Assembly: GCA_016903675.1 (NCBI GenBank)
Contig: JADQBA010000016.1
Location: 60,238-100,237 of the forward strand
Origin: Stigonema ocellatum SAG 48.90 = DSM 106950
GTDB taxonomy: Bacteria; Cyanobacteriota; Cyanobacteriia; Cyanobacteriales; Nostocaceae
DNA: 40,000 bases
Reading direction: 5' to 3'
Of this stretch, positions 7,956 to 31,080 are shown piece after piece. The first letter of the stretch is position 1. Every line of letters begins with the position of its first letter. Under the pieces are notes generated by a model. The model searched no databases. It worked only from the letters and a program-made list of their open reading frames with translations, and had not been told where the DNA came from. The position numbers and the translations under genes are program-made.

Positions 7956-8002
7956 AGCCTAATCGCCTCAACAACAACTACCAATCCACAATATATAATC
8001 AT

Positions 8003-8075: not shown

Positions 8076-8091
8076 AAAAATCCAAAATCCT

Positions 8092-11349: not shown

Positions 11350-11480
11350 CAAAAGTTAAGATATAGCACTCCTATTGGAGTCAAGGATGCGGCACTTATT
11401 GCTGTTTTAAGTGGTTCTGGGTTACGTCGTTCCAAAGCAGTGGGTTTAGATAAAGCACATTACAACCCAGAAGATGGTTC
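11350..11480 (+). pseudogene. Fragment of a tyrosine recombinase (phage-type integrase), truncated at both ends
   Basis: My translation reads QKLRYSTPIGVKDAALIAVLSGSGLRRSKAVGLDKAHYNPEDGSMLL. This matches the box around the first catalytic Arg in XerC/D-type integrases (RDxALlxxLyxxGLRRSExxxLxxxDy...dg.l). An in-frame stop lies at 11347, and the 3' side runs into the vapC gene on the opposite strand. Confidence 0.55.
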
Positions 11481-11891
11481 AATGCTATTATCTATCTCCC
11501 AATCTTCAATCATCAAGTTATGAACGCGCTTAAATTCTCTGGTGTTATGGGTAATGAGGGTTAAGTTATTTGTCAGTGCGATGGCGGCAATTTGTAAATC
11601 ATAAGCTCCGATTGGAGTACCTAATGCTTCTAGCCCAGAGCGAATCATTCCAAATGTCATTGCTGCTATATCGTCAAAGGGTAGTGATATAAATTGAGCT
11701 AAAAATTCTTGCTGTAAGGTAAGATTACGTTCAGGGTTTGCACTTTTTATTGCGCCATAAAATAGTTCAGCTTTGACGATTGAGCAAACAGCAATATCTC
11801 TAGTTGCAGTGGATTCTAGTTTCTGCTTTAAGGTGGAATTTTTACCACGCATATAGATAATACAAGTGTTAGTATCTAGCAGGAAGTTCAT
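11460..11891 (-). CDS. vapC: PIN-domain toxin VapC
   Basis: 143-aa ORF. The N-terminus is MNFLLDTNTCI (first acidic residue) and ITHNTREFKRV lies near the C-terminus. There is a 4-nt overlap with the upstream small ORF. Confidence 0.8.
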   Translation of the reverse strand: MNFLLDTNTCIIYMRGKNSTLKQKLESTATRDIAVCSIVKAELFYGAIKSANPERNLTLQQEFLAQFISLPFDDIAAMTFGMIRSGLEALGTPIGAYDLQIAAIALTNNLTLITHNTREFKRVHNLMIEDWEIDNSIEPSSGL

Positions 11892-12238
11892 AGAACCGCT
11901 TCGCGTTCAAGTTGTTGTCCTTGGGGATGGCGAAAGAATGTTTCATCTTGGATACATCCATAAAATTGAGTCAGGGGATATTCTGGGGTTTCGGTTGGGG
12001 TTTCTGGTTTTAGGGACTCGATGAGGGTTTTTAGCAATGCCCAGCCGAGGTTAATGTCTAATTCTTCGATAAGTTCAGCATAGAGGGATTGACGGAAGAA
12101 TTCTGAGAGTTTAGTGCTTTGAATAGGGTGGGTGTCGTTATTGTGTGTAGTCAGGCTTTGGGCAAGGAGTTGGATGATATACAGTTTATCGTTGGGGGAA
12201 AGCTGAAGGAGTTGTTGTTCGAGTTCTGGGATAGCCAT
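11888..12238 (-). CDS. Putative VapB-type antitoxin partner of VapC
   Basis: 116-aa ORF whose stop overlaps the vapC start by 4 nt (11888-11891). The call rests on position and size only. Confidence 0.55.
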   Translation of the reverse strand: MAIPELEQQLLQLSPNDKLYIIQLLAQSLTTHNNDTHPIQSTKLSEFFRQSLYAELIEELDINLGWALLKTLIESLKPETPTETPEYPLTQFYGCIQDETFFRHPQGQQLEREAVL

Positions 12239-12397
12239 GATGGGGTTTAAGTAGAGGATAAATTTATTCTACTTTCAGCGTCGCGCTTTAGATGCTTCCG
12301 CACGAGTATTCAGATGGTTCGCTGCGATCGCTATGAGAACAAATGACTTATTAACTCCGACAAAGCTGACATGAATAGAGAATAACGTACCAAAATA

Positions 12398-12841
12398 CTA
12401 CTTTGTCATCCTATCTAACGCAGATGGAGATGGAAATCTGCTAACTGCCATCAATGCTTGCCGCTCTATAATCCGCTCATTGTTGTTAAAATCAAAAATG
12501 CGTACTGTGACTTCTCCGATTTCTGTCTGTGGTTGAATCACTACCTCATCTAATCGAAAATGCTCTCCCCAAAAATCTCTACGTGGGTTAAAAAACCTAA
12601 CAAGTTCTCCAGTGCGCCAATTAATAGATCCCAGGTCGGTTCCTTTTTGGAGATTACAGAAAATACAAGAATAGGCAAGGTTATCTGCTGTTGTTGCTCC
12701 ACCGTGTTTAACGCTAATGATATGGTCAATTTGATAAGCTGAAGACCTGTCTGCTTCTAGAACATAGCAGTATTCGCACAAAAAATCAGCACGGTTGGCA
12801 ACATTGCGTCGCAGTTCTAAATTAATGTAAGGACGAGGCAC
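12398..12841 (-). CDS. HNH endonuclease
   Basis: 147-aa ORF with CEYC...QIDHIISVKHGGATTADNLAYSCIFCNLQKG (CxxC...H-N-H...CxxC). Confidence 0.8.
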   Translation of the reverse strand: MPRPYINLELRRNVANRADFLCEYCYVLEADRSSAYQIDHIISVKHGGATTADNLAYSCIFCNLQKGTDLGSINWRTGELVRFFNPRRDFWGEHFRLDEVVIQPQTEIGEVTVRIFDFNNNERIIERQALMAVSRFPSPSALDRMTK

Positions 12842-12850
12842 AGTGAACAG

Positions 12851-13105
12851 TTACTCAACTTTAATGTACATATAAGCACGGGCTTTTGCTAAAGTCATTA
12901 TATGCTCTAATGTGAGAAAAGTATCTAATTCCTTTTTTTCCTCTGGTGTCAAATCCCCCATTGTATGTTGGTAAACTAAGTCATCTAAACGTTCTTGTGC
13001 TATATCCGATAGTTTAAAATCGATGACATTTTCAGGTGTCGTTCCAGAAGCAATAAAATCAACAATTTCGTCGTAAACTTTAGTTGTCTTTACAGATGTA
13101 GTCAT
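12851..13105 (-). CDS. Small hypothetical protein immediately upstream of the HNH gene (possible partner or antitoxin)
   Basis: 84-aa ORF on the same strand, 9 nt from the HNH start. Confidence 0.45.
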   Translation of the reverse strand: MTTSVKTTKVYDEIVDFIASGTTPENVIDFKLSDIAQERLDDLVYQHTMGDLTPEEKKELDTFLTLEHIMTLAKARAYMYIKVE

Positions 13106-13209
13106 ATATTTATTCTCTACCTATTAGTGTCACTTCATCTATGGTACTCGTTTATAAAAGAGACACGGGGCTACGAGACAAAATTTTCTAATTAGTGCGA
13201 TAAGATAAA

Positions 13210-13719
13210 ATGAAAGAACAAACGTACTATTTCAAGGAAGCAGGTGGCGATATGCGAAGCGCTCTTGATGTTGCCAGATACTTCCTGTGTCGCATTGATA
13301 GGGATGCAGGTGATACAATATCCCCTTTGAAGCTTCAAAAGCTTGTGTATTATGCTCAAGCTTGGAGTCTAGTACTTAGAGATAAACCATTATTTTTTGA
13401 AAAAATTGAAGCATGGTCCCATGGTCCTGTGGTATATGAAGTCTGGAATGCTTATAAAGAGCATAGACATACTGCTATTCCTGTGCCAGATTCCTACGAT
13501 TTATGCGATCCCGATTTTCCTGATGATGAGCTTGAAGTACTTGAAGAGGTCTGGAATGTTTACGGGGAGTTAAGTGCAAGACAACTTGAACACTTGACCC
13601 ACACTGAAGCACCATGGTTGGATGCTCGAAAAGGTATAGATCCAGGCGAAAAGTCTCAAGAGGTTATTTCTCACCAGAAAATGAAATCTTACTATGAAAA
13701 ATACGTAGTTGAAGATTAG
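13210..13719 (+). CDS. Panacea (DUF4065, SocA-like) domain antitoxin candidate; more likely start at 13252 (MRSALDVARYF)
   Basis: The motifs ALDVARYFL, PLKLQKLVYYAQAWSLVL and EAWSHGPVVYEVW are characteristic of DUF4065/Panacea. Confidence 0.7.
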   Translation: MKEQTYYFKEAGGDMRSALDVARYFLCRIDRDAGDTISPLKLQKLVYYAQAWSLVLRDKPLFFEKIEAWSHGPVVYEVWNAYKEHRHTAIPVPDSYDLCDPDFPDDELEVLEEVWNVYGELSARQLEHLTHTEAPWLDARKGIDPGEKSQEVISHQKMKSYYEKYVVED

Positions 13720-14159
13720 TGGGCAAAAAACATTTACCAAAGCAAAAAAAAGATACGAAGGGGAGCAAAATTCCTGAAAATGCTACTGCTAATGCGTTTC
13801 AGGCAGGTACGACTGATCATCTAAGACCAAGTTTCAGATTTACGTATGCTGATGAAAACCGTTGGCATTTATCTGAATGGAATGCAGACGAAATAAAGGA
13901 TCTTATCCGTGACCTTAAGAAGATTGAAAAGTATACTTGGCTTCAAATAAAGGAGCAGGGGTCGAAACAAAGGGGAAGCTCTGTAGGGTGTGGTTTCAAA
14001 ATCATCCAAAATCATCCAAATTTGCCAAATAATGTAAGTGAAGATGTCACTATCTCAGAAATGCGTATCGGTCAAAAAAAACGTATCTTTGGCTTTCGGC
14101 TAGAATCACACTACTATATTGTCTGGTTTGACCGTGACCACAGCGTTTGCCCAGAATAA
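13719..14159 (+). CDS. Putative toxin partner of the Panacea protein; family unrecognised
   Basis: 146-aa ORF with a GTG start that overlaps the TAG of the upstream gene by 1 nt. The N-terminus is basic. The C-terminal segment ISEMRIGQKKRIFGFRLESHYYIVWFDRDHS is reminiscent of the RelE/ParE-type strand pattern. Confidence 0.45.
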   Translation: MGKKHLPKQKKDTKGSKIPENATANAFQAGTTDHLRPSFRFTYADENRWHLSEWNADEIKDLIRDLKKIEKYTWLQIKEQGSKQRGSSVGCGFKIIQNHPNLPNNVSEDVTISEMRIGQKKRIFGFRLESHYYIVWFDRDHSVCPE

Positions 14160-14976: not shown

Positions 14977-15114
14977 TTTTCAGCATAGGAGTTGATTGTC
15001 CTACTGATTTTCTAGACTACAAACTTAAGTTATTTTAGAATTTAACCTTAGAGGTAGTACGGGGATAAAAATACGTCTAAACTTTCCAACATTTTTAAAG
15101 GGTTTGAATCTAGC

Positions 15115-16641
15115 TTGCGCTTCGGGCAGGAACGAAACGAGGAGCTTTACCGTCAGCACCTCGAAGTCGTTGAAGAACTTTATAAATGCAAGCTCAGGGA
15201 TTTGGTCAAACCCTGGAATTCCGAATTTTCCTCGCAGATGAAGCTAATTCGCCTGCGCGACCAAATCCGAGATTTTTTCGGACGCGATGAAGTTAACTTT
15301 GTAGCGATTGACGGCACCTGCAAGGCAGAGGAGACTACCCAATTTTTGTTGTTTTACGCGGGAGCCTATGGAGCCAGGGGGTCTCTCGACCTCAAGGGCA
15401 TACCCCCAGCGTTACGATATCATAAGTGGTCGCTGGAACAAGATGTGTCAGTTGTGGCGCAGGTGCCAATCCCCTATGCGGAATTAGAGGATGTGCTGGA
15501 AGAAGAACGCGACCCTTTTGCTGTTAGCGATCTAGAAAAGACGAACCTTGCAGGGTTGCATACTCTATTGATGCAATTATCGGAAGTATATTTGGCTTAC
15601 GATACCGTAACCAGTAGTCGCACAGACGCGCCAGACTTCGTACTGTTGGACCAGTCAATCTCCTCTGCTATGGCATCGAACATGGTGCAGCCTTCTGCTG
15701 TGCGGATGATTGGTAGTCCTTGGAGAGAGCGCCAGCTGACAGAGGCTGATGCCACAATTGCCTTAGCTCATCCCTTTAATTCAGATTTAGGTATTCCCAC
15801 CGTTAAGCGGTTTCGTCAGTATACAGGACTTTTAGCTCGAATGCAGCAAGGTGGAGGCACTGTAGACCTGGAACAGGTTGCTGGCGAGGAAGGTTTGGAA
15901 TTGGACGACCTGAACTCCGGTGTTGCCTATTTAACTAAGCGAAATTTAGCGCAATTATCATCAGATGGTAAGCGTCTGACTTGGATGGGACCGCACGATA
16001 TCGAAGCTTCTTGGGCATATACCAAGGCTGTTTTTCGACAAATTTGCGAAAAACTGTTCGTGGAGAAAGACCCCACAGCTTTGATGTATACCGTAGAAAC
16101 AGATGAAATGCGGCGACGCCACTGGATGAGTCCCCCCGATATTAAGTTTTTAATTGGGGTGGGTTTGCGATCGCTCATTGAGGAGTGCTGGAAACGCAAT
16201 GTATTGCTGGTAGGGTTGGTTAAAGATTCGTCTTCGGCGTATTTCACCCGCAACTATTTGGGGGTAATGCGATTCCTTGACGTGCTTCCGGAGTTGAAAA
16301 GCTTTTCTCGCCCCTTACCATCAACTGACCGCATTGCTTTAGAAATTTTACCGCTAATTAACGATGAACTAGAATCTCCTTGGTCAACGGTTGAGTTTGA
16401 CGGCGTATTTATGACGATGTTTGTCCGCCAAGAACCCGACGGTACTTGTGACCTCAGTGGAGTTAGGGGAGATATCCTCGCGCCCGAATGCCTGACGGCA
16501 CGTTCCTTGGCACAGTTTTACTTAAATCGAAAGCCATCGGGACCGTTGATGGGTCATGTGATTTTCGTCGAGCGCTTGCTGCCGTTTATAAGCAAATCTT
16601 GGCTGCTGGGAAGGTGCGTGTCTATCAGCGTGTTGATGTAA
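15115..16641 (+). CDS. NurA-like nuclease (TTG start inferred; the C-terminal 30-50 aa are doubtful)
   Basis: 508-aa ORF with NurA-type motifs FVAIDGTC, FVLLDQSISS, LVGLVKDSSSAYF and PSTDRIALEIL. The frame opens at 15100 and the first possible start is the TTG at 15115. Confidence 0.6.
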   Translation: MRFGQERNEELYRQHLEVVEELYKCKLRDLVKPWNSEFSSQMKLIRLRDQIRDFFGRDEVNFVAIDGTCKAEETTQFLLFYAGAYGARGSLDLKGIPPALRYHKWSLEQDVSVVAQVPIPYAELEDVLEEERDPFAVSDLEKTNLAGLHTLLMQLSEVYLAYDTVTSSRTDAPDFVLLDQSISSAMASNMVQPSAVRMIGSPWRERQLTEADATIALAHPFNSDLGIPTVKRFRQYTGLLARMQQGGGTVDLEQVAGEEGLELDDLNSGVAYLTKRNLAQLSSDGKRLTWMGPHDIEASWAYTKAVFRQICEKLFVEKDPTALMYTVETDEMRRRHWMSPPDIKFLIGVGLRSLIEECWKRNVLLVGLVKDSSSAYFTRNYLGVMRFLDVLPELKSFSRPLPSTDRIALEILPLINDELESPWSTVEFDGVFMTMFVRQEPDGTCDLSGVRGDILAPECLTARSLAQFYLNRKPSGPLMGHVIFVERLLPFISKSWLLGRCVSISVLM

Positions 16642-17483
16642 GAAGTAGTTTAGGAAGCTTTATCAGGAATTTTTGGAGTGAAGTCAATACTTCTAACTTT
16701 GCAGCAAAGGATTTGCAGTCAGTTAATAATTTAATCAATGAGTTAAGTGGAATTGAACAAACATTATTAGAGGCTGATGTTGAAAGTATTTTGACCCAAA
16801 TTAGAGATACTGCTCAAAATTTAGGTGCTAGAGCAAAGAAGGCTCTAAACGATTTACATGATACTCTAAGTAGTGCATGGGAAAATTCCCGTCGTAATCC
16901 TCCTCTTCCAGAAGAAAGTCGAGTCACAGTTCCTGAGTTAGTGTCTCAGATAAACGACTCTAGAAAAGATAACCTTTTTGTGATTCAGTCCCATGACCCT
17001 AATGAACTACGCTCTTTTAGCCGCTGGCTTGGTAACGAAGCTTATGAACAGCGTAGGCGAACAGGGCAAATTAGTCCTTTAGTCAGTTTTATATTTGATG
17101 AAGCTGATGAATTTATTCCTCAAGACGCTTCAGGAACTTATAGAGATTCAACCGAAATTGCAATGACTTTAGCCCGTCGGGGACGAAAATTTGGTTTGGG
17201 AATTGGTATTGCAACACAAAGAATTACCTACCTTGATACCAGCATCATAGCTCAACCCCATACATATTTTGTTTCTAAACTACCACGCAAATCTGACCAA
17301 GACCGAATTCGTGACGCTTTTGGTTTGAGTGATGAAATGTTTCGTCAGACAGTAAAGTTTAAAAAAGGTGATTGGCTCTTGGTCAGTTATGATGCGACAG
17401 GTTTAGAAGCAGTGCCGTTGCCAATTCATACTCCAAACGCGAATGAGAGGCTGGCGAATTTTCTACAAACTTATTCCGATTAA
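16488..17483 (+). pseudogene. HerA/FtsK-type ATPase, C-terminal half only (no Walker A found)
   Basis: Walker B is FIFDEADEFIPQD, followed by ARRGRKFGLGIGIATQRITYLD and FVSKLPRKSDQDRI, typical of the HerA C-terminal half. The frame is closed by a TAG at 16464-16466. Neither other frame encodes a GxxGxGKS motif upstream. The ORF overlaps the NurA ORF by 154 nt. Confidence 0.55.
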
Positions 17484-17521
17484 TTTTGAATTCCAAGATG
17501 GAATATTTTTTGAAAAATCGA

Positions 17522-18541
17522 TTATGGATATCTAAGTTTAACACCACTACCACCATTGGGAGTTGGACAATCCCAGCGAAGGTCGCAAATAGCACAATCT
17601 TGTTCGCTAATAGCTCCGGGAACTGCTGGATACCATTGGTCATTGCAACGAGCTTGTTCAATCTGTACTACAGTCTGTGCAAACTCATTTACTGCATCAT
17701 CAATCTCATTGGGCGTGATGCTAACCTCCAGTAAAGCATTAACTGGGCGCTTAGAGGGACAAGTTGGACCATCAAGCTCATTAAGGAAATACAAAATAGC
17801 TTTTTGAGGTAAAACCCCATGTTTTAGCTCATAAAGTTTGGCATAAACCCGCATCTGGAATTCATAGTTTTCTAGGTCTTTTGGATTGACATTCAACAAA
17901 CTACTGCCTTTGTAATCCCACATTTCACAGTCGGCTGGGTTTCCTGCTGCGTCAGGTGCATCTACCAAAAGGTCAACAACACCATGAAGAATGTGAGTAT
18001 TGCGATCCGCTTGCAATCTATGTTCCGTATCTTTAACTCTTTTGTAAAGTGTTGGTCCTTCAAGGGCATTAAAATATTGAAGCAAACGTACAGCTTTGAG
18101 TCGAATATCTTGGGTTATTGCTCGAATTCCTTGGCTTTTTAAGCCATTTTCAACTTCAACAAAATACTTGACAATATCACTAGGAGGTATTGGCTTTGTT
18201 GATTTTGCTTTTTCTGCGTGTCTAAGCTCATCAAAGTAGTCAAGAATTTCTTCATCTTCTAAGATGTTGCAATTATCTGGCAGAGTACCCTTTGTTGAAG
18301 GGTCAATTTTTCCATGGAAATGGGTATGACAGCGATCTAAAACTTGGTGAAGAATAGTGCCAAAGTAAGCCTGGGTTTGATAAGCAGGTGCATATTTATG
18401 GACATTAAAAGCCCCATACTGACGAGCGCATCGTCTAAATGCGACTATATCTTGAGTAACGCTATAACGACGTTTTATATTTGGTGTTTTGGGTAAAGAG
18501 ATTGAAAAACCTTGAAAAGGTTTTCTTCTATTTGTGGTCAT
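17522..18541 (-). CDS. PD-(D/E)XK nuclease of the Cas4/AddB (RecB-like, Fe-S cluster) type
   Basis: 339-aa ORF. Motifs are GVVDLLVD...CEMWDYKGSS (D...ExK-type DYK motif) and QMRVYAKLY (QxxxY). One N-terminal Cys (FRRCARQYG) plus the C-terminal CAICDLRWDC (Cx2Cx5C) form the four-Cys signature. Confidence 0.75.
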   Translation of the reverse strand: MTTNRRKPFQGFSISLPKTPNIKRRYSVTQDIVAFRRCARQYGAFNVHKYAPAYQTQAYFGTILHQVLDRCHTHFHGKIDPSTKGTLPDNCNILEDEEILDYFDELRHAEKAKSTKPIPPSDIVKYFVEVENGLKSQGIRAITQDIRLKAVRLLQYFNALEGPTLYKRVKDTEHRLQADRNTHILHGVVDLLVDAPDAAGNPADCEMWDYKGSSLLNVNPKDLENYEFQMRVYAKLYELKHGVLPQKAILYFLNELDGPTCPSKRPVNALLEVSITPNEIDDAVNEFAQTVVQIEQARCNDQWYPAVPGAISEQDCAICDLRWDCPTPNGGSGVKLRYP

Positions 18542-18552
18542 AAATTTTTCCT

Positions 18553-20778
18553 TTATATCGTAATAGCGAACATATTCCGCTTAAATTCCACATGATTACG
18601 GTTGGGTACAGCAATATGATTTTTAATCTGGTCTTGCGTACCAATTAGAATCAAACCGTATTGTGCGCGTGAATAAGCTACATAAAGCAAACGAATGTCA
18701 TCTTCTATCGCTAAATCTTCTGGTTGTCTAGTATCTCTTTGATAAAGAGCTTGTCGAAATGGAGCTAAGGTTTGCTCAAGCATTTGTGCGGCTCCAACTT
18801 TCCCTTCTTGACCTTACTTTGTAACAACAAATACAAAAGGAAACTCTAAACCCTTTGATTGATGAATTGTCATAATGGGTAAATAGCCTTGAGGAACAAT
18901 GATTTCCTCATCTTCATCATCATCAATACCCGTCTCAATTAAGTAGCTGATAAACATGTTATAAAATTGATTGATAAAACTCTCATCAATGTCATTTCCA
19001 GCAGTATTAGCTCGTAAAACATCTAGGTTAAAACTGTTATAACCTTCAAAAAGACGAGTGACTTTAGAAAGACGTGAGTTTCTTACAGTATCTTGTTTCC
19101 ATGTCCGAAATGGTTCCCGCGAAAGAATACGATAGATGATTTCTAATAAGTTCAGATTCAGAAATCGACCTGGGTTATTTGGGCTTAGACTATTGGCACA
19201 TATTTGTGATAAAGCTGCATTACTATTGTTTAGGTAATCATCTAGTAAATTTGTAGGGACGTTAGGGTCATTTCTCACGCTATCGAGAGTATTGAACCAT
19301 TCCTGAACAGTGTCAATCCACTCCAGAGGTCTTCCCTGTGGGTCTATTTTCGATTGAAAAGTGTGATTTGGGTCAATCACTTGAACCAGTGCTGCTAGTA
19401 AACACTGAACTTCGTCACTCTCCATGAAAGATTTAGACCGAGGATTATAGATAGGAATCTCACGTTGCTGGAATGCTGTAATAAAGGGACCAGCATTTCG
19501 AGCCGAGTCTTTGGCACTTCGTAGCAGTAAAACGCACTGACTTAGATCGGAGATAATTTTATCACCTATCAAATGATTAATCGTAAATTCAGCAACTGCA
19601 TTAGCCAAGTCTCCTACTTTCTTTGTTTGAATCCAAGAAACAGCAGGATATGCTCCAGTAATAGATGAGGCAGCATTGACTGGTTTTTTACCTGGAGCAC
19701 GTACTCCTCGTGCTGTCATTTCTGGAAATGAAGTGATGTATTGGTTGAAAAATTTAACAATATCAGGATGAGAACGGTAGTTGTTATCAAGCTGAATTTG
19801 ATGAGGATATTTACTATACTTAGCCAGACAAGCTTCATCAAAATTCACCATACAGGTTACATTTCCTCCTCGGAAACGATATAAAGCTTGATCGTCATCG
19901 CCGACTACTGTGATATTGTGCGGTGGTTGATGGGCTAAAGCTAAGTAGATTTGCTCTTGAATTGGGTTAGTGTCTTGATATTCATCTACTAATACGTATA
20001 ACAAAGGAGGATTTTGGTCACTTCCCTGTAAAAACTGTTGACCTATAAGAGAGGTGATAAATTCAAGAAAACTAGCTTGGAGATGAGCGAAGTCGCAACG
20101 ATAGTTTTCCTTTAGAGCTTGAGCATACTGCTGATAAAACTTTGCTAAAGTTGCCCAGTGTCCACCAGCACTGAGCATTGCTTGTAAATTAACGTAGTCT
20201 TCTACAATGTGATTAAAAAGTGTGACTGCTGACTTGGCTCGCTTCCATTTATTAGGAGGATAGTTGGTGTTACGCCAATCGCGCACAGCATAATTAAAAT
20301 GTTGCCAGAAAGCTAAATCTTGAAATTTTGAAATATCAGCATAGCGGTAGGTAAATAAATCCTGTTCTACCTGATCCAGAAGGCGAACATTTTGATAGCT
20401 TGGATAGCGGTATTCTTGGAGAATATCATTACATAAACTATGTAGTGTTCCTATTCTGATATCAGCCAGATCAACATTTTTCAGGTTATGATCTGTATTT
20501 TGTAGTGCTACTAGGTAAGTCGCCAAGCGGTCTTCAAGGTTACGTGCTGCTTTAGCAGTAAAAGTAGTTAAGAGAATAGAGCGAGGTTGGACACCATTTA
20601 CACAAAGCAATTTCAAAGTTCGTGTTACTAGTACTTCGCTTTTGCCCGATCCTGGTCCCGCTAGAAGCCACAAGGGACCATTGCCATACTCCACAGCTTC
20701 TTTTTGCTTCTGATCAAGGTCGTAGCCACGTGCTGAAGGTTGAGCAAGACATATGTGGAAAGTGTTCAAATCAATCAT
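18553..20778 (-). pseudogene. UvrD/Rep-family SF1 helicase interrupted by a single in-frame TAA (18814-18816)
   Basis: The 654-aa ORF carries LAGPGSGKSEVLV (motif I), LVDEYQDTNPIQ (II), VGDDDQALYRFRGG (III), NYRSHPDIV (IV) and MTIHQSKGLEFPFVFV (V). It ends at the TAA. The 76-aa ORF 30 nt downstream is in the same frame and carries motif VI, RLLYVAYSRAQ. Confidence 0.75.
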
Positions 20779-20790
20779 TTCGTACCCTTA

Positions 20791-21045
20791 TTAGCTCTCC
20801 TCATTTTTTCTCCGACCCATATTTGAACGGGCTACCCTGCGTTGCTCAAGAAGTTCATCACGCAGTAAATTTTGCTGCTCAGGGTCTTGCCAATCCCTAA
20901 TCAATCGTTTTAGTGCCACGTTCACCATGTCTTGTAGGCTTGGGGCATCGCTAATTTGATGAGGAGCAAGTGATTGCTCGAACGAGTGTTTAATCCTGTG
21001 CAAGTCCGCATAAATTTCATTTGGAATCCGTGCTTGATAGGGCAA
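20791..21045 (-). CDS. Small hypothetical protein leading the UvrD-nuclease operon (possible DNA-binding regulator)
   Basis: 84-aa ORF, 12 nt upstream of the helicase start and divergent from the DGQHR gene. I recognise no firm motif. Confidence 0.45.
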   Translation of the reverse strand: MPYQARIPNEIYADLHRIKHSFEQSLAPHQISDAPSLQDMVNVALKRLIRDWQDPEQQNLLRDELLEQRRVARSNMGRRKNEES

Positions 21046-21162
21046 TTGTATTACCGCAGCTATATATCTGACCCCAGCATAAATACATACAACTAATTTC
21101 TGCTACCATGTATGCTTGTATGCAAGCTTATGCAAAAATGAAATTAACTTATAGGAGAAGTA

Positions 21163-22260
21163 ATGTTTGAACTTGTCATAAAAGGTGTTCCCGTACACCG
21201 TGGTCCTAAGCGCGAACATATTACTTATGTTGCAAGTACTACTTTTGGTGACATTGCTCGACTATTAAACGATGGTCACCTCTATATCCCCAACATCCCA
21301 GACTTGCCGGACTTTGCCCAACGTAAACTTAACCAGACACGAGTCAAGGCGATCGCCCGGTACATTCTGGAGACTTATCAGGATGGGACTACATTTTTCC
21401 CGCCAATTTGTGTTAATGCTCAACCATCACCAACTTACAAAGATGGTAGCCTCCATCTTCCTTACCAGTCACTTGGATTGCGCTTAACTGATGGTCAACA
21501 TAGATGTTTTGGGATTCGTCAAGCACTCCAAGATATCCAGACGCAACCGTCAGAGTATACCATCATCCTTTCACAATTAGAAATTGGCGTGTTAATATAT
21601 GCTGGACTGTCTTTAGAGGAGGAGCGTCAAGCTTTCCGCGACCAAAACCTGTTAGTCCAACGACCAAGCGTGTCGCTATCCCATGCTTTTGACAGGCGAT
21701 CGCCCACAGTTTTGATTGCCAAAAATTTACTAGAGCGAGTTCCTCATTTTCGCGATAATGTAGAAATGTTTGAAAGCGGATTGGGTCAACACAATCCCAA
21801 GTTGCTAACGCTTGCCACTTTGGTGACTGCAACCCAACATATGTTTTCACATTTGCAGTCAAAAGAGAATTTAGAGCCATTAGTTGATTGGGCAACGGCA
21901 TTTTGGACTGCAACAGCGAGTGTGTTACTCGATGAGCCTTGGACGATAAAAAGTAAAGAGGAACGTGCAGCTCAAAGACAGGATTCATTAGTAGTGAGCG
22001 CTCCTATATTTCAGGCATTGGGGATGTTGGCTCACGACTTATATCAAGAGGGTGTTCCAGCAGAAAATTTTGTCCAGTGGTTAAGCAGACTGCAAGAAAT
22101 AGACTGGCGGCGCTCTAATCAACTATGGCAAGAGCGAGGTATCACACAAGTTAGAAGTCAGGGAGAAGCAATTATTCCAAATACTAAGACAACTATTAGG
22201 GCTTGTCATAAGGTACTAAGAGAGTTGATTGGTGTTGCACCCGTTGGTGGTGTGATTTGA
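21163..22260 (+). CDS. DGQHR-domain protein (DndB/DpdB-like, ParB-fold)
   Basis: 365-aa ORF with the literal motif LRLTDGQHRCFGI. It is preceded by ataggagaag (SD-like) 4 nt upstream. Confidence 0.8.
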   Translation: MFELVIKGVPVHRGPKREHITYVASTTFGDIARLLNDGHLYIPNIPDLPDFAQRKLNQTRVKAIARYILETYQDGTTFFPPICVNAQPSPTYKDGSLHLPYQSLGLRLTDGQHRCFGIRQALQDIQTQPSEYTIILSQLEIGVLIYAGLSLEEERQAFRDQNLLVQRPSVSLSHAFDRRSPTVLIAKNLLERVPHFRDNVEMFESGLGQHNPKLLTLATLVTATQHMFSHLQSKENLEPLVDWATAFWTATASVLLDEPWTIKSKEERAAQRQDSLVVSAPIFQALGMLAHDLYQEGVPAENFVQWLSRLQEIDWRRSNQLWQERGITQVRSQGEAIIPNTKTTIRACHKVLRELIGVAPVGGVI

Positions 22261-23096
22261 GCAAATTCCAATCCTAAAACTTCTTGAAAGACATTGCGGT
22301 TACTAAACTTGCTGTCATAGCGCTCGTTCCACCACAACCAACCAGTAGAATCTGCCCAAACATTGTGCTTTTTGAGTACTTCTATACGGGTTAATGCCAG
22401 TCCTCCTAAGACAAACTCCGGTCGGCTCCAAGCCAATAGTTCATCCAACTCTTCTATAGACAAGCCAAATTTAAAGCCCGTGGTTCTAGTTTTATCAACT
22501 TTCAATAGCCCTCCCAGTGCAATGTACTCATAGCCAATGTCCCGATAAACACTAATCAAGGGAGCCAGGAAGCTTTTAGGTAATTCGTAATGTGGAGGAA
22601 AACAATCTAACTGGGGAACTACCTTTTGATGCCAATTGTAGATTGCATACCCAACTTGAACTACGCCAATCAAAGCATAGGTTCTTTGTTTATGCCAATA
22701 TTCTTCCCAAGTTAATCTGGCTAAATATAAAGACAGTAATGGCTCACCAAAAATGTCTTGCGTGAAAACAAAATCAGGACAAAATTGGTCACAACGTTCG
22801 AGATATTCTTTAACCTTCTGTCGTAAATGCTGTTCAGATGCCAAACGTAACTCACGCATCCACCGATGATTACGGTATTCACAATACTGTTGGTAGTACC
22901 AAGGGAAATCTTGATTTGTAAAAACACCACTGTCTATAAAAAAGGGCTTTTCCAAATCACGAATACTCTGAAGGAGCTTATTGTAACATGAAACAGGTGC
23001 AAGAACACCATAATTTCCTTCTATTTTTTTTAATCTTTTTAATAAACCTAACCAGTCCATAGAAAAAACTGGTAAAAATTTATTATTTAAATTCAT
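22206..23096 (-). CDS. Divergent TGT-fold (DpdA-like) protein lacking the Zn-binding motif
   Basis: 296-aa ORF. FFIDSGVF, YEYIALGGLL, FVLGGLALTRIE and WADSTGW parallel GDCGAFGY, YDYIAIGGLA, LFGVGRIE and SFDSAGP in the neighbouring 711-aa protein. No CxCxxC...H motif is present. Confidence 0.45.
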   Translation of the reverse strand: MNLNNKFLPVFSMDWLGLLKRLKKIEGNYGVLAPVSCYNKLLQSIRDLEKPFFIDSGVFTNQDFPWYYQQYCEYRNHRWMRELRLASEQHLRQKVKEYLERCDQFCPDFVFTQDIFGEPLLSLYLARLTWEEYWHKQRTYALIGVVQVGYAIYNWHQKVVPQLDCFPPHYELPKSFLAPLISVYRDIGYEYIALGGLLKVDKTRTTGFKFGLSIEELDELLAWSRPEFVLGGLALTRIEVLKKHNVWADSTGWLWWNERYDSKFSNRNVFQEVLGLEFAQITPPTGATPINSLSTL

Positions 23097-23165
23097 ATTT
23101 TTAATATTTAATTTCTTATTATAAGATTAACATTATTCTGGATGATAATCCTCTAAGTTTTCTGT

Positions 23166-25301
23166 TTAATTTTCACTATTTAGAAATTCTTGTAAACGAT
23201 TATAAAATATATAAGTATTGTGAAAACCACGTCTACGATTGCGGTCATTTCCTCTAAAAATAACTGCTTCTACCCCAATTTGTTCACAGATTTTACACTT
23301 ACATTCCTGCCAAGGTCTTGCTTCTAAAAGCTCTCTGTACATCTGAGTGTGTTGTCTTAAACGTCTGGCTTTAGCTGCTGGGTTGACCTTACCGTTGCGA
23401 GGTAATTCTAACAACTCGTCGAAAGCAAGCAGTTTATTGAGCGCATCATCTATCGATATTTTATCTTTATCATATTCTCGGATTGCGAAGAGTGCGTCTT
23501 GCTCAAGCAGCTTGAGAGTTTCACGCTCATAACCATTTTCCAATAAATGCTTAATTCGTTGTGAGTGCTTATCTACAAAAGGAATACGGACAGCAGCGTA
23601 ATTTTTCCCGCTCATAGTATGGTAGTTGTTTACTGCATCAAACCAAGCTTTACGCAACGGACCTGCAGAGTCAAAGCTAGTAACTCCCAAATGGCGGAAA
23701 TAAGGAATAGCTTCAATACGCCCCACCCCAAATAAATGTAGTCTTGTTGTGGGAGTCAAATGTGGATAAACCTCCTGTAGAACTTCTAAAATTTCTTTAG
23801 TTGGTGTTCTTGCTAGTCCACCTATAGCAATATAGTCGTACCCCATTTCAACCAGTGCTTTCACTGCATCAGCATATTTTTCTGGATTCCACCCTTGTGC
23901 AACACCTATAGGAGTAAATGTATACCCTCTGCTGTCATGTTTTCTGATAAATTCCTCTGCATTTCGCAAAGTAAGGTCATAGCGTTTCTCTCTTACTCCA
24001 GGTTGTGCAAAAGGTCCCACAATTAAGTGGTCAATACTGACTCCGTAATTGAAGCCCAGTTGCTCATAATAATCCAAAATTTCTACAGTATTATATGGAG
24101 GTTCTTCCTGTTTTATATATCCAAACGCTCCACAATCTCCCATGATTTTTCCTGGGAACCTAACAAAGTTGCGGATACCTCCTACTGCTTCTATGTCATT
24201 CTTTTTTGATTTTCTTTTATCAACAACTACTTTAGACACTAAAATTCCATGATAGTTCCGTTCTCCATATATTTCATGGGCATAGATATCGTCTGTATAT
24301 GCATTACGATTGGGACTAAATTTATCTTGTTCAAAGACATAGCCAGCATCTACTTTATCATCCCATTCTGGAATAAAGTATTGCATTTGTAAATGCTTAT
24401 TAACTGCTGGACGTAATTCCAGAAAGCGATGTAAATCTTCTTCTGTAGATTTTGGCTTACTTTTTGTTTGATTTTTAACTCTTGACTTTTTTTCTTTTGA
24501 AAATGAGATTCCTAAAGGTAAATATAATTGATTTGGTTGCTTATCTAAAACATCTTTTAGTATTTCTGGCTCTCTGTATAAATTTTGCAATAAATCAGAG
24601 TTCTCTCTCACTTCATTGGCAATCAGCTTGAGCAGATGTCCTTTTAATCCCACTAATGCACAGCTAAAACGTGATGCATCGGCATTGGAAAGAGTAAACA
24701 CTTCAGACTTAGCTTTGTCTGAATCTATATAATTTATGCTTTTATTTGAGGCGAAAAATATGAAAGTTTGGTTAGTATGAGTCTCAACAGGTAAGTTTAA
24801 AGCACGCAGGTATTTATCTCCAAGCAAGACAAACACCAAATCGTATCCAACAACTGCTTGTTTAAATGCCTCATGTATTCCGAGAAAATCTGCCCAAGAA
24901 CAAACCTCATTACTCTTCATCGAGTTGAATGTGACGGAGTAGGGAACGATAACTCTGTCTTCAGGGATTAACCCATACCCTGCTGAGATGATTTTCACAT
25001 CTACCACATATGATCCAAAGCGCTTACCGTCAGGTTGCCTCAGGCTGCGCAGGATATTTACACCCTCCATTGCCCGCATATGCTGTAAACCCGTGTACAT
25101 CTGAGCTGCTGGACAAGAAAACTCAGATAGTAATTGAGAGCGTTCGCTTAACTTCTTTGCGTCTTTAAAATCTTCGATTGTGAGCTGGTTTGTTGGCTTA
25201 AAGCGTTTTTCCCCTGTACAAGAGGTAATTACTAAAACGCGAGGCTGTTGCTTGATATGATTTAACGCAACAGCAGTTGTTGTTTCAAATAATTTAGTCA
25301 T
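23166..25301 (-). CDS. dpdA: Fusion protein: N-terminal domain of unknown function (about 330 aa) joined to a C-terminal DpdA-type guanine transglycosylase (TGT fold)
   Basis: 711-aa ORF. The C-terminal half has GDCGAFGY, DYIAIGGLA, HLFGVGR and SFDSAGP, plus the zinc motif CKCKICEQIG-(x)-FH (CxCx2Cx21H). The N-terminal half has VLVITSCTGEKRF, AAQMYTGLQHMRA, IISAGYGLIPEDRVIVPYSVTF and VFVLLGDKYLRAL. The ATG overlaps the queD stop by 8 nt. Confidence 0.65.
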   Translation of the reverse strand: MTKLFETTTAVALNHIKQQPRVLVITSCTGEKRFKPTNQLTIEDFKDAKKLSERSQLLSEFSCPAAQMYTGLQHMRAMEGVNILRSLRQPDGKRFGSYVVDVKIISAGYGLIPEDRVIVPYSVTFNSMKSNEVCSWADFLGIHEAFKQAVVGYDLVFVLLGDKYLRALNLPVETHTNQTFIFFASNKSINYIDSDKAKSEVFTLSNADASRFSCALVGLKGHLLKLIANEVRENSDLLQNLYREPEILKDVLDKQPNQLYLPLGISFSKEKKSRVKNQTKSKPKSTEEDLHRFLELRPAVNKHLQMQYFIPEWDDKVDAGYVFEQDKFSPNRNAYTDDIYAHEIYGERNYHGILVSKVVVDKRKSKKNDIEAVGGIRNFVRFPGKIMGDCGAFGYIKQEEPPYNTVEILDYYEQLGFNYGVSIDHLIVGPFAQPGVREKRYDLTLRNAEEFIRKHDSRGYTFTPIGVAQGWNPEKYADAVKALVEMGYDYIAIGGLARTPTKEILEVLQEVYPHLTPTTRLHLFGVGRIEAIPYFRHLGVTSFDSAGPLRKAWFDAVNNYHTMSGKNYAAVRIPFVDKHSQRIKHLLENGYERETLKLLEQDALFAIREYDKDKISIDDALNKLLAFDELLELPRNGKVNPAAKARRLRQHTQMYRELLEARPWQECKCKICEQIGVEAVIFRGNDRNRRRGFHNTYIFYNRLQEFLNSEN

Positions 25302-25683
25302 CTTCGTACTCTACCCAAGAATTAGGAGTTTCTGAAACCGCAACCTTCAGTTGTACATCAAGCGGCACCCGCTTCTTGGTTTCGTCATAAATATATTTAG
25401 CAATCATCTCAGATGTTGTTTCATATTCGGGAGGCATGACTTCGTTTAGGATGCAGTGGTCAAGTCCTCCCTTACTTACATCTTTCTTTGCCCAACGTAG
25501 AGTTCTGAAATCCGAGACCATCGCTGGATGCGGACAATACTCGGACAAATGCAGCGAATATGACGATGCCTCGATTCGCACTTTATAAGTGTGCCCGTGC
25601 ATTCTACCACAGGGTCCGTCGTAATCCTTAATATAATGAGCGCTATCAAACGTAAATTCTGTAACGAGTTTCCATTTGGGCAT
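25294..25683 (-). CDS. queD: 6-carboxy-5,6,7,8-tetrahydropterin synthase QueD (PTPS fold); start at 25683 preferred over the track start at 25743
   Basis: MPKWKLVTEFTFDSAHYIKDYDGPCGRMHGHTYKVRIEA carries the Cys and His-x-His catalytic and zinc signature of QueD/PTPS. Starting at 25683 gives 129 aa, a typical QueD size. Confidence 0.85.
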   Translation of the reverse strand: MPKWKLVTEFTFDSAHYIKDYDGPCGRMHGHTYKVRIEASSYSLHLSEYCPHPAMVSDFRTLRWAKKDVSKGGLDHCILNEVMPPEYETTSEMIAKYIYDETKKRVPLDVQLKVAVSETPNSWVEYEDD

Positions 25684-25820
25684 TTTATGTATCCCTATTA
25701 AACATAAATTGCTTTTTAGCAAAATAAGTTCATCTTTATACAATAAAAGTATTCGATTATACTTTTCTTAAAAAAGAATATTCGATATTACCGTGAATGT
25801 AAATACTTTGGCACAAACTG

Positions 25821-26183
25821 TTACTGTGTAGCGGCTTCGGATAGTAAACCTGACATGGACAGGACGTGTTCTGACGCCTGTTTGGCGACAAGAGTAACCT
25901 GAGTTCTCGCCTCCGTATCAGTACAGATTTGACTCCAGTGCCGTTGCCAACGGGAAAGTAGACGCTGTAAATCCACCAATTCTGCTGCTTGGTCTATATC
26001 CATGGACTGCGCAGTCCACTCAATAAAAAACTTGCTTTCTTCTACGAGACTAACAACTAAATCACCATGTGCTGGGTCATCTAAAAAAGATTTAATCCGT
26101 GCCAAGTTTGCAGCTAGGTTCCCCAAACGGGTGGGAATATTATCTCTTTGAAGCCTTTGTTGTTTTTGAGTCCAGTCTTTCAT
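25821..26183 (-). CDS. Hypothetical protein (120 aa), all-helical appearance
   Basis: An ORF with no recognised motif. A 23-aa mini-ORF (26251-26180, MEIQDATIRERVAEVIQQLLGDV) overlaps its start via ATGA. Confidence 0.45.
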   Translation of the reverse strand: MKDWTQKQQRLQRDNIPTRLGNLAANLARIKSFLDDPAHGDLVVSLVEESKFFIEWTAQSMDIDQAAELVDLQRLLSRWQRHWSQICTDTEARTQVTLVAKQASEHVLSMSGLLSEAATQ

Positions 26184-26305
26184 ACGTCTCCTAGCAACTG
26201 TTGAATAACTTCGGCAACTCGTTCTCTAATCGTAGCGTCCTGAATTTCCATTGAACTTAATCAGCAACGCCAAAAACTTTAATAATAATGATCATCAAAT
26301 AGAGA

Positions 26306-26338
26306 GGGGATGAGGCTAGCGTCGCTAGCCTCATCCCC
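26306..26338 (-). terminator. Perfect hairpin (15-bp stem, 3-nt loop) downstream of the large WD40 gene
   Basis: ggggatgaggctagc gtc gctagcctcatcccc. On the minus strand it is followed by tctctatttgatg, which is only moderately U-rich. Confidence 0.45.
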
Positions 26339-26541
26339 TATAACCCGCGCACGATTATCATTTTCATTTAGATAATTTTAAGTATTTTAACTGATTGACA
26401 AAAGTCACTTTACCTTAACCTCTCACGAATGGCTGGTGGGCACTGCCCACCCTACGAAATCATCAGCTTTTTGTTGCTCTGATTTTCGCAACAAGGCGGT
26501 GGTGCAAGATATGAGCCTACCCACTTAACTAATAAGTTCTT

Positions 26542-26576
26542 AATTACGAATTACGAATTACGAATTACGAATTATT
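26542..26576. repeat. Heptamer tandem array AATTACG x4 plus AATTATT, the same family as 5818-5852
   Basis: aattacg aattacg aattacg aattacg aattatt. The array overlaps the stop codon of the WD40 gene. Confidence 0.9.
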
Positions 26577-29500
26577 CACTCACTGCTCCCAAAGCTTTCA
26601 AAGTTACCTTTTCAGCTACCGTTAAACCAATTATACCTGTAATATTCATACCCTCATAAGGTCTATGTGCCCTAAAAGTTTTTAAACACTCACCTGTAGC
26701 CACACTCCAAAGCTTAATAGTCTCGTCTTTGCTACCACTGGCTAACATTTGACCATCTGGACTAAAAGCAACACACCAGATCACTTTCTCATGTCCCCGC
26801 AACGTTTTCAAAGTTACACCTGTATTCACATCCCAAAGCTTTACTGTTTGGTCATCGCTGCTACTTGCTAACATTTGACCATCTGGGCTAAATGTAATTG
26901 ACCTAACTCCGTGGGTATGTCCTTGAAAAGTACGTAGGCATTGCCCTGTACCCATATGCCATAGTTTAATGGTTTGGTCAGCGCTACCACTGGCAACAAG
27001 GCTACCACAGGGACTAAAAGCAACTGATAAAACCCAATCCTCATGTCCTACCAAGGTTGTTAAACAAATACCAGTACTAGCATCCCAGAGTTTAATGGTT
27101 TGGTCATCACTACCGCTGGCTAAGGTCGTTCCTTCTGGGCTGAAAGCTACTAACTTGACCCGATGAGTGTGTTCTTGCAGCGTATGTAAACACTCACCCG
27201 TGCGCCAATCCCAAAGCTTAACAGTGTAATCGTTACCACCACTTGCCAGAATTTGTCCATCTGGACTGAAACAAACTGATTGAACCCAACCACTATGTCC
27301 CCACAAAGTTCTCAAACATTCACTTGTCTTGGCATCCCACACCTTGATAGTTTGGTCATCACTGCTGGAAGCTAGGATTTGAGTACTGAGGTCACTGAGT
27401 GTGGCAAATGTGACTGCTGTGACTATATTAGTATGACCAAGCAATGTTCTTTTACATTGTGCCGTCGAAATATCCCACAGTCTGACTCTATGGTCTGCAT
27501 GACTACTTGCCAAGGTTTGACCATCCACACTGAAGGCAACAGATGACACCCAATTGCTGTAAGTTGAGAGCGATCGCAAGCATTGTCCAGAAGAAAAATC
27601 CCAAAATTTTACAGTTTGGTCATCACTCACACTCACCAACGTTTGCCCATCAGGACTAAAACCAACTAACCAAACCCTCTCGGTATGTTCCTGCAAAGTT
27701 TGCAAACAATCAACCGTTGAAACATCCCATATCTTAACAGTTTTATCTTCACTTGCTGTCGCCAGTAACCGACCATTTGCACTGAAGTTAACTGACCAGA
27801 CATAGCTGCTGTAACCTGGTATAACTTTAACACATTCTAGCGTCTGGATATCCCATAATTTCACAGTGTTACCATCGCTTCCCGTTGCTAGTATATGCCC
27901 ATCAGGACTCAAAGCAACAGAACGTTTCCAGTTGATGTTGGTTTCCAAACTCCGCAAGCACTGACCGTTATTAATATCCCAAACCCTTACAGTTTGGTCT
28001 TCACTGCTACTCACTAATATTTGTCCATTTCCACTGAACGCAACAGACCATATCCGACCTGTATGTCCAAGCAAAGCTTTAATGTACTGCCCAGTGTGTA
28101 TATTCCATAATCGCACAGTTTGGTCATTACTACCACTTGCCAAAATTTGACCATCTGGACTAAAAGCAACAGATTTCACCCAACCGGTATGACCTCGTAG
28201 GGTTTTGAGACATTGCCCAGTTTGAACATTCCACAATCGTACTGTTTGGTCATGACTAGCGCTTGCCAAAATTTGACCATCTGGGCTAAAAGCAAGACAT
28301 ACTACCCAACTAGTATGCCCGTTATAGCAGCGCAACTTTCGACCATCTGCAACTTGCCACAAACAAATCTCTTCATCAATCCCTATTGCTATCAACTTTC
28401 CGTCTGGACTAAAGGTTGCTGAGAAAATAACGCCTAAAGTTTGAGTCAATACAGATTTAGTCAAATCTGAGTTAGAGAAATTGACGAAGTGCAAATTCAT
28501 CCCCTGTAGGTACGCCTGCCAAACAGTTAAGTTAGAAAAATTATAGCCACTGAGGTCTACCTGCAATTGCCAGAGGAGATTGAGAAGATTACCCCCAGCA
28601 TATCCCGGTTTTCGGGGTGCATGGGAACGTAGTGTTGACAGCAACTGATTCAAGTGGTCTTGGACAATTTCCTGATTTCCCAAAAAAGTCAGAAGTCTAT
28701 CGGCAATAGGCTTCAGTATCAGCCTTGTTTGAGTATTTCTTAAATAATCTTTTGCCTGAGATTTGATGAGCGCATAGCTATTAAATTTTGTTATTTCTCC
28801 AGCTAAAATCTCTTGGCAAATCTCTTCGATAAATCGGTCAGTGATATATTCCATAACTACGGGTTGTTGAGAGAATTTTGCCAATTTTTTCTCAACTAAA
28901 GAGCGCGATATTAGAGAATCTAATGTTTCTAACAAATCCCGTGGTGCCACAGCAGGGATAATATCTCCTTGCAATTCTGCTAGTGATAACCATTCGCGAT
29001 TAATTGCCAGCCAGTACATGACCTGCTGTTCTAACACAGACAGGCGATTAAACTGTTGGTCAAGTAAATCTGAAATGTCTCCAAATACAATTGTGCCTTG
29101 CTGCAAAAACTCAGCAGTACTACCGTCAAATAACTCCTGAATGGTTGTCGCCACAATCTTGAGTGCCAGTGGATTGCCTGCATAGTAACTCACTAGCGTG
29201 CGACCTTCATCTTCAGATACAGAAAAGCCTTTTTCTAATAGAATAGAGTGACATTGTTCTTGAGGTAAACCAGATAATCTTAACGAATGAATACGTGAAT
29301 TTTTACCTTCTTTAACGCTAATTCCTCGAAGTTTTTCCCGACTGGTTAATACCAGGCAACTCTGATGGTTAGTTTCTCCCACACATCTAAAAAGTTGCCC
29401 ATATCCTTCATATCCTTGTCGATATGCTCCTGCACGTTTGTCACTGGATAAAATTGATTCTACATTGTCAAGTACTAACAAACAGCGTGCAGAACGGAGA

Positions 29501-31071: not shown

Positions 31072-31080
31072 GTTCTTGGT

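Follow-up and report, generated by a model that had tools for sequence, protein, structure and literature searches.

Dpd systems are defined by DpdA, DpdB and DpdC together with DpdD–K (PMC10164549, PMC5699537), and modification in the canonical system requires the ATPase DpdB (PMC10164549). Genome mining has since revealed dpd islands, one of them in the cyanobacterium Hydrococcus, that have no restriction operon; the study makes no mention of a UvrD gene (PMC11888242). Fusions of UvrD with Cas4-like PF12705 nucleases have been described next to Type III restriction–modification and Dcm/Vsr genes, as accessories to defence systems (Hudaiberdiev et al. 2017, PMC5704561). Here we consider a minus-strand operon (17522–21045) in a 40,000-nucleotide stretch of Stigonema ocellatum SAG 48.90 (= DSM 106950), hereafter the window, which is part of a contig of 106,868 bp. 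The operon encodes an 84-residue protein, a UvrD-like helicase and a Cas4-family nuclease, and lies beside genes for DNA deazaguanine modification. Judging from gene content, we consider it fairly probable that this region is the helicase–nuclease half of a compact Dpd-like restriction–modification island, the restriction arm of which is disabled here by a change of TTA to TAA.

The window shares with the canonical Dpd system of Salmonella Montevideo (dpdA–K) a DpdA transglycosylase, a DpdC-like domain, a DndB/ParB-like protein and QueD, all in one island. The underlying logic is presumably also shared, with 7-deazaguanine placed on the cell's own DNA and unmarked DNA restricted. In contrast to the canonical system, the window has no DpdD–K, its DpdC is fused to DpdA, it encodes an extra Zn-less protein that resembles tRNA-guanine transglycosylases (TGTs), and its sole candidate effector is the UvrD-like helicase with the Cas4-family nuclease. 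The UvrD–Cas4-like fusions are alike in coupling a UvrD superfamily 1 (SF1) helicase to a PF12705 nuclease in a defence context, adjoining a DNA-modification enzyme. They differ in that the partner in the window is a deazaguanine transglycosylase and the two proteins are encoded by separate genes. AddAB, AdnAB and RecBCD likewise combine an SF1A motor with an iron–sulfur (Fe-S) PD-(D/E)XK nuclease, and the fold of the nuclease matches the nuclease domains of AdnA/B, AddB and AddA. Unlike those proteins, the nuclease of the window is only 339 residues long and has no dead-helicase domain, and its context is defence rather than recombination repair. No paper in the literature we searched links DpdA with a UvrD/Cas4-like pair, although supplementary figures of earlier Dpd work may show one. 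The compact architecture was not found described there.

Linkage of the helicase–nuclease pair to DpdA

To compare gene neighbourhoods, we relied on a metagenome scan with an alignment of the nuclease, which returned 79 loci. A contig scan with the helicase alignment drew generic UvrD motifs, and the useful loci from it were L002–L004. The linkage counts come from an iterative profile map of the 79 nuclease-scan loci and the earlier ones. We call loci well flanked if they have at least 3 kb on both flanks (28 loci), and the stricter set has at least 5 kb (21 loci).

The helicase gene is immediately upstream of the nuclease gene in 78 of the 78 loci with upstream sequence. An earlier note, made from the letters of this DNA, had tied its proposal to co-occurrence of the pair with dpdA or DGQHR genes in other genomes, and the association held when that comparison was run: a DpdA-family transglycosylase is encoded in 26 of the 28 well-flanked loci (19 of 21 in the stricter set). 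The median distance between DpdA and the pair is 80 nt; the genes are often within 200 nt of each other, in one operon, and this holds across phyla. Even where identity to the pair falls to 40–45%, in Chloroflexi and Planctomycetes genomes, DpdA stands beside it. The single match in IMG/VR reads helicase, nuclease, DpdA.

Several gene orders recur. Architecture A runs DpdC–DpdA fusion, 296-residue protein, DGQHR protein, 84-residue protein, helicase, nuclease, and is found in the Stigonema window, on a plasmid of Scytonema NIES-4073, and in Coleofasciculus and Crocosphaera. In the latter two the six-gene island is bordered by ordinary metabolic or housekeeping-type genes, which leaves no other effector at those sites. 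Architecture B runs DpdC–DpdA fusion, NurA-like protein, HerA (DUF87), an unannotated protein of about 715 residues, often a small TGT of about 300 residues, helicase, nuclease. It was found in Thiohalocapsa and two metagenome contigs; the loci with this order are L085, L087, L088, L093, L120, L128 and L165, the protein of about 715 residues being missing or displaced in L165, and none of them has a DndB-like gene. In architecture C (Nostoc UIC 10890 and Halotia), the DGQHR, 84-residue, helicase and nuclease genes lie beside DpdD and PLD genes, and no DpdA occurs within 10 kb. Finally, in many loci the operon is reduced to DpdC and DpdA, often fused, plus the helicase and nuclease; the genes come in three orders, and QueD sometimes joins them. 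Among these minimal operons are those of Dehalococcoidia and Urbifossiella genomes (about 44% identity), of several unclassified metagenome contigs and of the IMG/VR match.

The two well-flanked loci that have no DpdA nevertheless hold genes of Dpd type: L082 has DpdD and PLD, and L114 has a YprA-like piece, PLD and GmrSD. Within L114 (1483–13726) the pair is set amid a split YprA-like helicase (1151 residues plus a 628-residue MZB piece), a PLD nuclease and a GmrSD type IV enzyme. On another reading, the pair would act in defence or repair as a module of its own, of AddAB type or akin to the Cas4-like and UvrD plasmid-interference genes of Synechococcus, and would sit beside dpd genes only through the general clustering of defence genes. 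Arguing for this, BrxD-like, Lhr-type, PIN, HNH and HerA genes make the window a defence island; in locus L098 the pair has no DpdA in the 2.5 kb upstream or the 10 kb downstream; and knock-outs of cas4 and uvrD in S. elongatus increase plasmid uptake (PMC10653904). Counter to this, DpdA accompanies the pair in nearly every well-flanked locus, often in a single operon, across phyla and in three gene orders, and the nuclease family is small, with 265 clusters at E ≤ 0.001 among 1.84 billion representatives. We regard an independent module as extremely improbable. From the conservation of gene neighbourhood we conclude that the helicase–nuclease pair would be functionally coupled to DNA deazaguanine modification, the linkage itself being the observed part.

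The genes of the island

The modification genes of the window are all full length. The largest of them (23166–25301, minus strand) encodes a 711-residue protein in which a DpdC-like (DUF6884) N-terminal domain is fused to a DpdA transglycosylase (Pfam TGT). The protein scores 474 bits against the NCBIfam DpdA equivalog NF041059 (cut-off 200), matches the Salmonella DpdA DNA-guanine transglycosylase structure 7ui4 in the PDB at 1.9e-90 and the PADLOC DpdA model at 1.9e-126. Matches of the N-terminal domain are moderate (DUF6884 3e-8, PADLOC DpdC 3.4e-8). The same fusion occurs in L002 and L003. The island also has a gene for QueD (6-carboxytetrahydropterin synthase; 25294–25743, minus strand; Pfam PTPS 3.4e-28), which belongs to the preQ0 pathway and has relatives in 15 of the 90 analysed loci.

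In a DpdB-like position, on the plus strand, is a gene for a DGQHR/DndB-like ParB-family protein (21163–22260; Pfam DndB 4e-80). Its score against the NCBIfam DGQHR domain is 113.8 bits (cut-off 58.85), its score against the DndB equivalog is under the cut-off, and apart from the DGQHR domain it matched only DndB models. The gene is syntenic across all cyanobacterial loci. On the minus strand, 22206–23096 encodes a 296-residue protein with 144 unannotated homologues; among the 120 listed, those with names are all cyanobacterial and none has a Pfam domain. Its AlphaFold model has a predicted local distance difference test score (pLDDT) of 80, and the top 23 PDB folds are all tRNA-guanine transglycosylases, with E values of about 1e-7 and template modelling (TM) scores of about 0.45–0.49. 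D55, G195, G196 and D249 are invariant in the family, in motifs that, on our reading, resemble the catalytic motifs of TGTs. An hhalign comparison of this family with the small TGT proteins was not significant. Given the fold search and the motif resemblance, the protein looks like a second, Zn-less TGT-like TIM-barrel enzyme.

In tblastn searches, neither DpdD nor the small PLD protein had a homologue in the window. None of the DpdD–K restriction genes is present in it, and no SNF2 or YprA/MZB domain occurs among its annotated open reading frames (ORFs). The only superfamily 2 helicase in the window (8092–10326) is of Lhr type and belongs to a separate BrxC/D-type cluster.

The order of the minus-strand operon proposed in the earlier note, an 84-residue protein followed by a UvrD helicase with all SF1 motifs and a four-cysteine PD-(D/E)XK nuclease, agrees with the ORFs, Pfam and the alignments. 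The nuclease gene (17522–18541) is intact and encodes 339 residues that match Pfam PDDEXK_1 (PF12705) at 1.6e-14 over model positions 7–247 of 247. The D…(D/E)xK and QxxxY catalytic motifs are present, and C38, C316, C319, C325, D190, E206, D209, K211, Q229 and Y233 do not vary in either of two alignments, one of 10 sequences and one of 33. The predicted Fe-S ligands, likewise invariant, are one N-terminal cysteine and a C-terminal C-x2-C-x5-C. Searched by sequence, the nuclease has no match in the PDB. The best Foldseek match of its AlphaFold model (pLDDT 87.3) to PDB structures is ACE1 (9iac, 9iab), followed by AdnA/B, AddB, RecE, Dna2, Exo5 and the type I-C Cas4, with TM scores in the moderate range of 0.4–0.5. 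The label "Cas4-type Fe-S nuclease" used in the earlier note is therefore fair on the grounds of PF12705, invariant residues and fold, for the PF12705 branch and not for CRISPR Cas4 proper. The latter was rejected, as the nuclease has no PF01930 match and none of the annotated ORFs of the window is a cas gene. ACE1, a Cas4-family enzyme associated with a prokaryotic Argonaute in cyanobacteria (PMC12094033), is also an accessory nuclease against invading DNA. It differs in sequence (about 11% identity) and in its partner proteins, and no Argonaute gene is found among the annotated ORFs of the window.

Several relatives of the nuclease form the C-terminal domain of UvrD fusions of 920–1070 residues (P0265, P0275, P0314, P0334). 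Such fusions argue that the helicase and nuclease act as one unit. An 11-nt gap containing AGGA separates the nuclease ORF from the last ORF of the helicase, which lies upstream of it.

The helicase is of the UvrD/PcrA/Rep SF1A type, with N- and C-terminal UvrD domains and motifs I–VI. Read through its internal stop it has 741 residues, matches Pfam UvrD-helicase (PF00580) at 4.4e-54 as well as UvrD_C (PF13361) and UvrD_C_2 (PF13538), and aligns over its full length with orthologues of about 735 residues. In about 100 of the 120 listed relatives, one protein of about 735 residues spans 100% of the fused reading. A profile of the helicase finds PcrA, UvrD, UvrD1 and AddA structures in the PDB at about 1e-33 (AddA 1.7e-32), and the motif residues are invariant in the orthologue alignment. 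Assignment to a housekeeping PcrA, UvrD, Rep or AddA orthologue was rejected: the best NCBIfam score, for pcrA, is 161 bits against a cut-off of 911, and the others are also far under. An AddAB or AdnAB system was rejected as well, in view of the absence of two large subunits and scores of 129 bits for AddA (cut-off 708) and far under the cut-off for RecB. Gabija also pairs a UvrD-like helicase with a nuclease, and PADLOC GajB models match the helicase at up to 1.3e-44. It too was set aside: the window has no GajA (OLD/TOPRIM), the GajB matches reflect generic UvrD motifs, and the neighbouring PDDEXK_1 nuclease belongs to another superfamily.

The in-frame TAA and loss of the helicase

The motifs of the helicase do not lie in an uninterrupted frame, as a TAA parts motifs I–V from motif VI. 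The N-terminal 654 codons (18814–20778, minus strand), assigned by Pfam and orthologues, carry motifs I (AGPGSGKS), Ia, II (DEYQD), III, IV and V (TIHQSKGLEF) and close at a premature TAA (18814–18816). That this codon is the sole interruption of the frame, as the earlier note had stated, was borne out by ORF reading. So was its observation that the next ten codons, GQEGKVGAAQ (18784–18813), and a 76-residue ORF (18553–18783) continue in the helicase frame. Together the ten codons and the ORF make up the C-terminal remainder (18553–18813, minus strand), in which motif VI (YVAYSRAQ) occupies 18661–18684.

The position of the TAA is held by leucine in 15 of 16 aligned orthologues and by isoleucine in the other. 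Among 59 other loci the count is 48 leucines, 4 isoleucines and no stops, which makes the stop unique among the 60 sequences compared. The codons here are AAG TAA GGT in the Stigonema window, AAG TTA GGT in Nostoc UIC 10890, Halotia and Crocosphaera, and AAA CTA GGT in Scytonema. Comparison with orthologous loci, suggested in the earlier note as a way to learn which codon the TAA replaces, thus points mostly to leucine, encoded as TTA in close relatives. The simplest history of the stop is one T>A transversion in a conserved TTA leucine codon. The ratio of nonsynonymous to synonymous substitution rates (dN/dS) relative to Scytonema is 0.11 before the stop, 0.09 after it and 0.11 in the nuclease gene. 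Because the downstream part gives no sign of relaxed constraint, the TAA would be recent relative to the divergence from Scytonema; most of that divergence is older than the mutation.

In UvrD and PcrA, motif VI of SF1 helicases supplies the arginine finger. By analogy, the truncated helicase, having lost motif VI, should not couple ATP hydrolysis to translocation and should be no working motor. We interpret the Stigonema allele as an ordinary, recent pseudogene, and of the three options that the earlier note had left open for the nonsense codon, recent inactivation is the best supported; sequencing error and a split or read-through arrangement rate lower.

In the split arrangement, translation would end at the TAA and restart at the ATG ten codons on, or the ribosome would occasionally read through, and the 654- and 76-residue pieces would reassemble into a helicase. 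The frame is indeed kept, the downstream piece is 92% identical to its Scytonema counterpart over 76 residues and has a low dN/dS, and both pieces are annotated in the public record as separate proteins (MBR8834355.1 and MBR8834354.1). A Shine–Dalgarno-like GGAG 8 nt ahead of the ATG at 18783 is a plausible ribosome-binding site for the 76-residue ORF and counts against simple inactivation. Yet the GGAG and ATG are ordinary Gly-Ala and Met codons in intact orthologues, none of the 59 other loci is split at this site, and the low dN/dS mostly predates the mutation. The break also falls inside what we take to be the 2A RecA-like core, where it would part the arginine finger from the ATP site. 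Readthrough or recoding was rejected, since the stop is kept in no relative and TAA is the usual stop of neighbouring genes, ending three ORFs nearby; the window has no tRNA gene, and 17000–26500 gave no match to an Rfam family. Altogether we find a two-piece helicase improbable.

The second possibility is that the gene is intact in most cells and that the TAA arose as an artefact of assembly or consensus calling or belongs to a minority allele in the non-axenic culture. The stop rests on the one assembly available for S. ocellatum SAG 48.90, a metagenome bin from a single Illumina data set, and to that extent inactivation is the less secure. Counter to this, the bin was sequenced on the NovaSeq platform at 472x coverage (PMC8001431), a depth at which substitution errors very rarely enter the consensus. 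The change is a clean transversion and not a homopolymer indel, and neighbouring genes are genuinely decayed by deletion. An artefact or a minority allele is, we believe, very improbable.

The helicase is broken in other genomes too. A relative that is at least 90% identical (P0242) has an internal out-of-frame deletion, and the Halotia helicase (L086) stops before motif VI and is followed by a DDE transposase gene; no nuclease was detected in that locus. C-terminal truncations are present in P0026 and P0058, and the frames of L004 and L095 are disrupted, split or partly deleted. These independent disruptions in other genomes suggest that the helicase gene is frequently lost. With its helicase cut short after motif V, the restriction arm in Stigonema SAG 48.90 is most likely dead.

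A compact restriction–modification model

In the mechanism that we propose, the DpdC–DpdA fusion would insert preQ0 at specific guanines of the host DNA and convert it to the amide form, with the DGQHR ParB-like protein, the second TGT-like protein and QueD assisting modification. The UvrD-like helicase and the Cas4-family Fe-S nuclease would form one AddAB/AdnAB-like motor–nuclease that unwinds and degrades unmarked DNA. The 84-residue protein would probably govern the divergent promoter through a conserved repeat. In Stigonema, the change of TTA to TAA would end the helicase after motif V and leave the nuclease and modification genes intact. Compact restriction–modification is the most economical model; the minimal operons hold no other effector.

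Several points weigh against it. In Nostoc UIC 10890, Halotia and L114 no DpdA occurs within about 8–10 kb, and DpdD, PLD or a YprA-like protein is found instead. Given these contexts, the pair is not always the sole effector, nor is it always next to a transglycosylase. The locus counts are upper bounds on independent observations, as near-duplicates occur among the metagenome loci. The view put forward in the earlier note, that the pair is an effector arm for the deazaguanine module and replaces the DpdD–K machinery, stands as regards the deazaguanine link, the gene context suggesting the effector role; replacement of DpdD–K, as the same three loci show, is not universal.

The main rival gives the pair a different role. 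The helicase could supply the ATP-driven opening of DNA for DpdA, as DpdB does in Salmonella, and the nuclease could make or process entry nicks, so that the two would serve modification rather than restriction, in a modification-only or anti-restriction module. Transglycosylation by DpdA and DpdB requires ATP hydrolysis, and a helicase-like role has been suggested there (PMC10164549). The minimal operons combine DpdC, DpdA, helicase and nuclease with no DpdB-like gene, and a 2026 paper on BREX argued along similar lines for a STAND NTPase in place of DpdB. On the other hand, the cyanobacterial islands hold a DGQHR/DndB-like protein besides the pair, which is thus not simply a DpdB substitute, and phage DpdAs function without DpdB (PMC10516641). 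The nuclease keeps its full set of invariant catalytic and Fe-S residues, typical of DNA-degrading Cas4/AddB enzymes. Repeated loss of the helicase, with dpdA intact in the window, fits a toxic effector better than a modification role. Because the DndB-like protein is kept, the nuclease is catalytically complete and the helicase is repeatedly lost, we rate a role in modification lower than one in restriction, and consider it unlikely.

Extending the restriction–modification reading, it is conceivable, although we put this forward only tentatively, that the trio of DpdC–DpdA, UvrD-like helicase and Cas4-family nuclease is a self-sufficient, unrecognised class of 7-deazaguanine restriction–modification system spread across phyla. 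An AddAB-like motor–nuclease would in that case read deazaguanine as "self", and the cyanobacterial version would add a second TGT-like enzyme, a ParB-like protein and a small regulator. RecBCD reads Chi, and deazaguanine marks may be likened to it as a "self" signal.

The canonical Dpd system needs eight restriction genes (dpdD–K), which is part of what has made its restriction step hard to resolve. A version of three to six genes with a single possible effector would be far simpler to reconstitute and could show how a nuclease senses 7-deazaguanine. If the islands reported to lack restriction genes (PMC11888242) resemble the present ones, the helicase–nuclease pair could be their overlooked missing arm. 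The Stigonema allele and the other, independently broken copies fit the idea of a costly arm that is lost first. In classical restriction–modification systems, too, the restriction genes are lost first.

Control of the island may lie at its divergent centre. The gene for the 84-residue protein, which heads the operon (20791–21045, minus strand) and has a TTG start, is a candidate small regulator in a conserved position: it is directly upstream of the helicase gene in Scytonema, Nostoc UIC 10890, Coleofasciculus, Crocosphaera and Halotia (46–83% identity). The protein has no match in Pfam, NCBIfam, PHROG or PADLOC. Between it and the DGQHR gene is a divergent intergenic region of 117 bp (21046–21162) that is more conserved than the flanking genes. 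It contains an operator-like repeat at 21077–21123, composed of GCATAAATACA and TGTATGC-T-TGTATGC. The stretch TACCATGTATGCTTGTATGCAAG, which includes the direct TGTATGC repeat and has GCATAAATACA (21077–21091) as its inverted partner, is unchanged in four genomes with coding DNA divergence of about 16–20%. The conserved repeat is probably an operator. That the 84-residue protein is the regulator acting on it is a guess from its position and the repeat. Scans for promoters and terminators found sites that were no more numerous than in shuffled sequence.

On the other side of the operon are the remains of another gene pair. A NurA-like ORF of 508 residues and the C-terminal third of a HerA ATPase (15076–17483, plus strand) are homologous to the pair in metagenome locus L087, where proteins of 615 and 606 residues (the latter with DUF87) are encoded downstream of a related nuclease. 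Relative to that locus about 1.3 kb is gone from the window, comprising the last part of the first gene together with HerA residues 1–418. Judged by this comparison, the NurA-like/HerA pair is a deletion remnant that converges on the nuclease gene.

Other genes of the window lie further from the island. A defence-type cluster (3055–10326, plus strand) comprises a DUF815 AAA ATPase, a TerB_C protein, a BrxC/D-type ATPase and the Lhr-type DEAD helicase, which has a winged-helix domain. The interval 11460–14159 holds small genes of toxin–antitoxin-like and nuclease type. They encode a PIN-domain protein, a 116-residue partner upstream of it, an HNH endonuclease, and a protein with a SocA/Panacea antitoxin domain and its 146-residue partner. 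On the high-coordinate side of the island are two very large WD40-repeat proteins, of 1524 and 768 residues (26572–31146 and 34719–37025, minus strand). Between these, within 31934–33422 on the plus strand, a GMC oxidoreductase is in fragments (N-domain 32378–32695, C-domain 32919–33422) and is likely a pseudogene. The 105-residue ORF upstream of the fragments (31934–32251, plus strand) is, by eye, a candidate ParE/RelE-type toxin.

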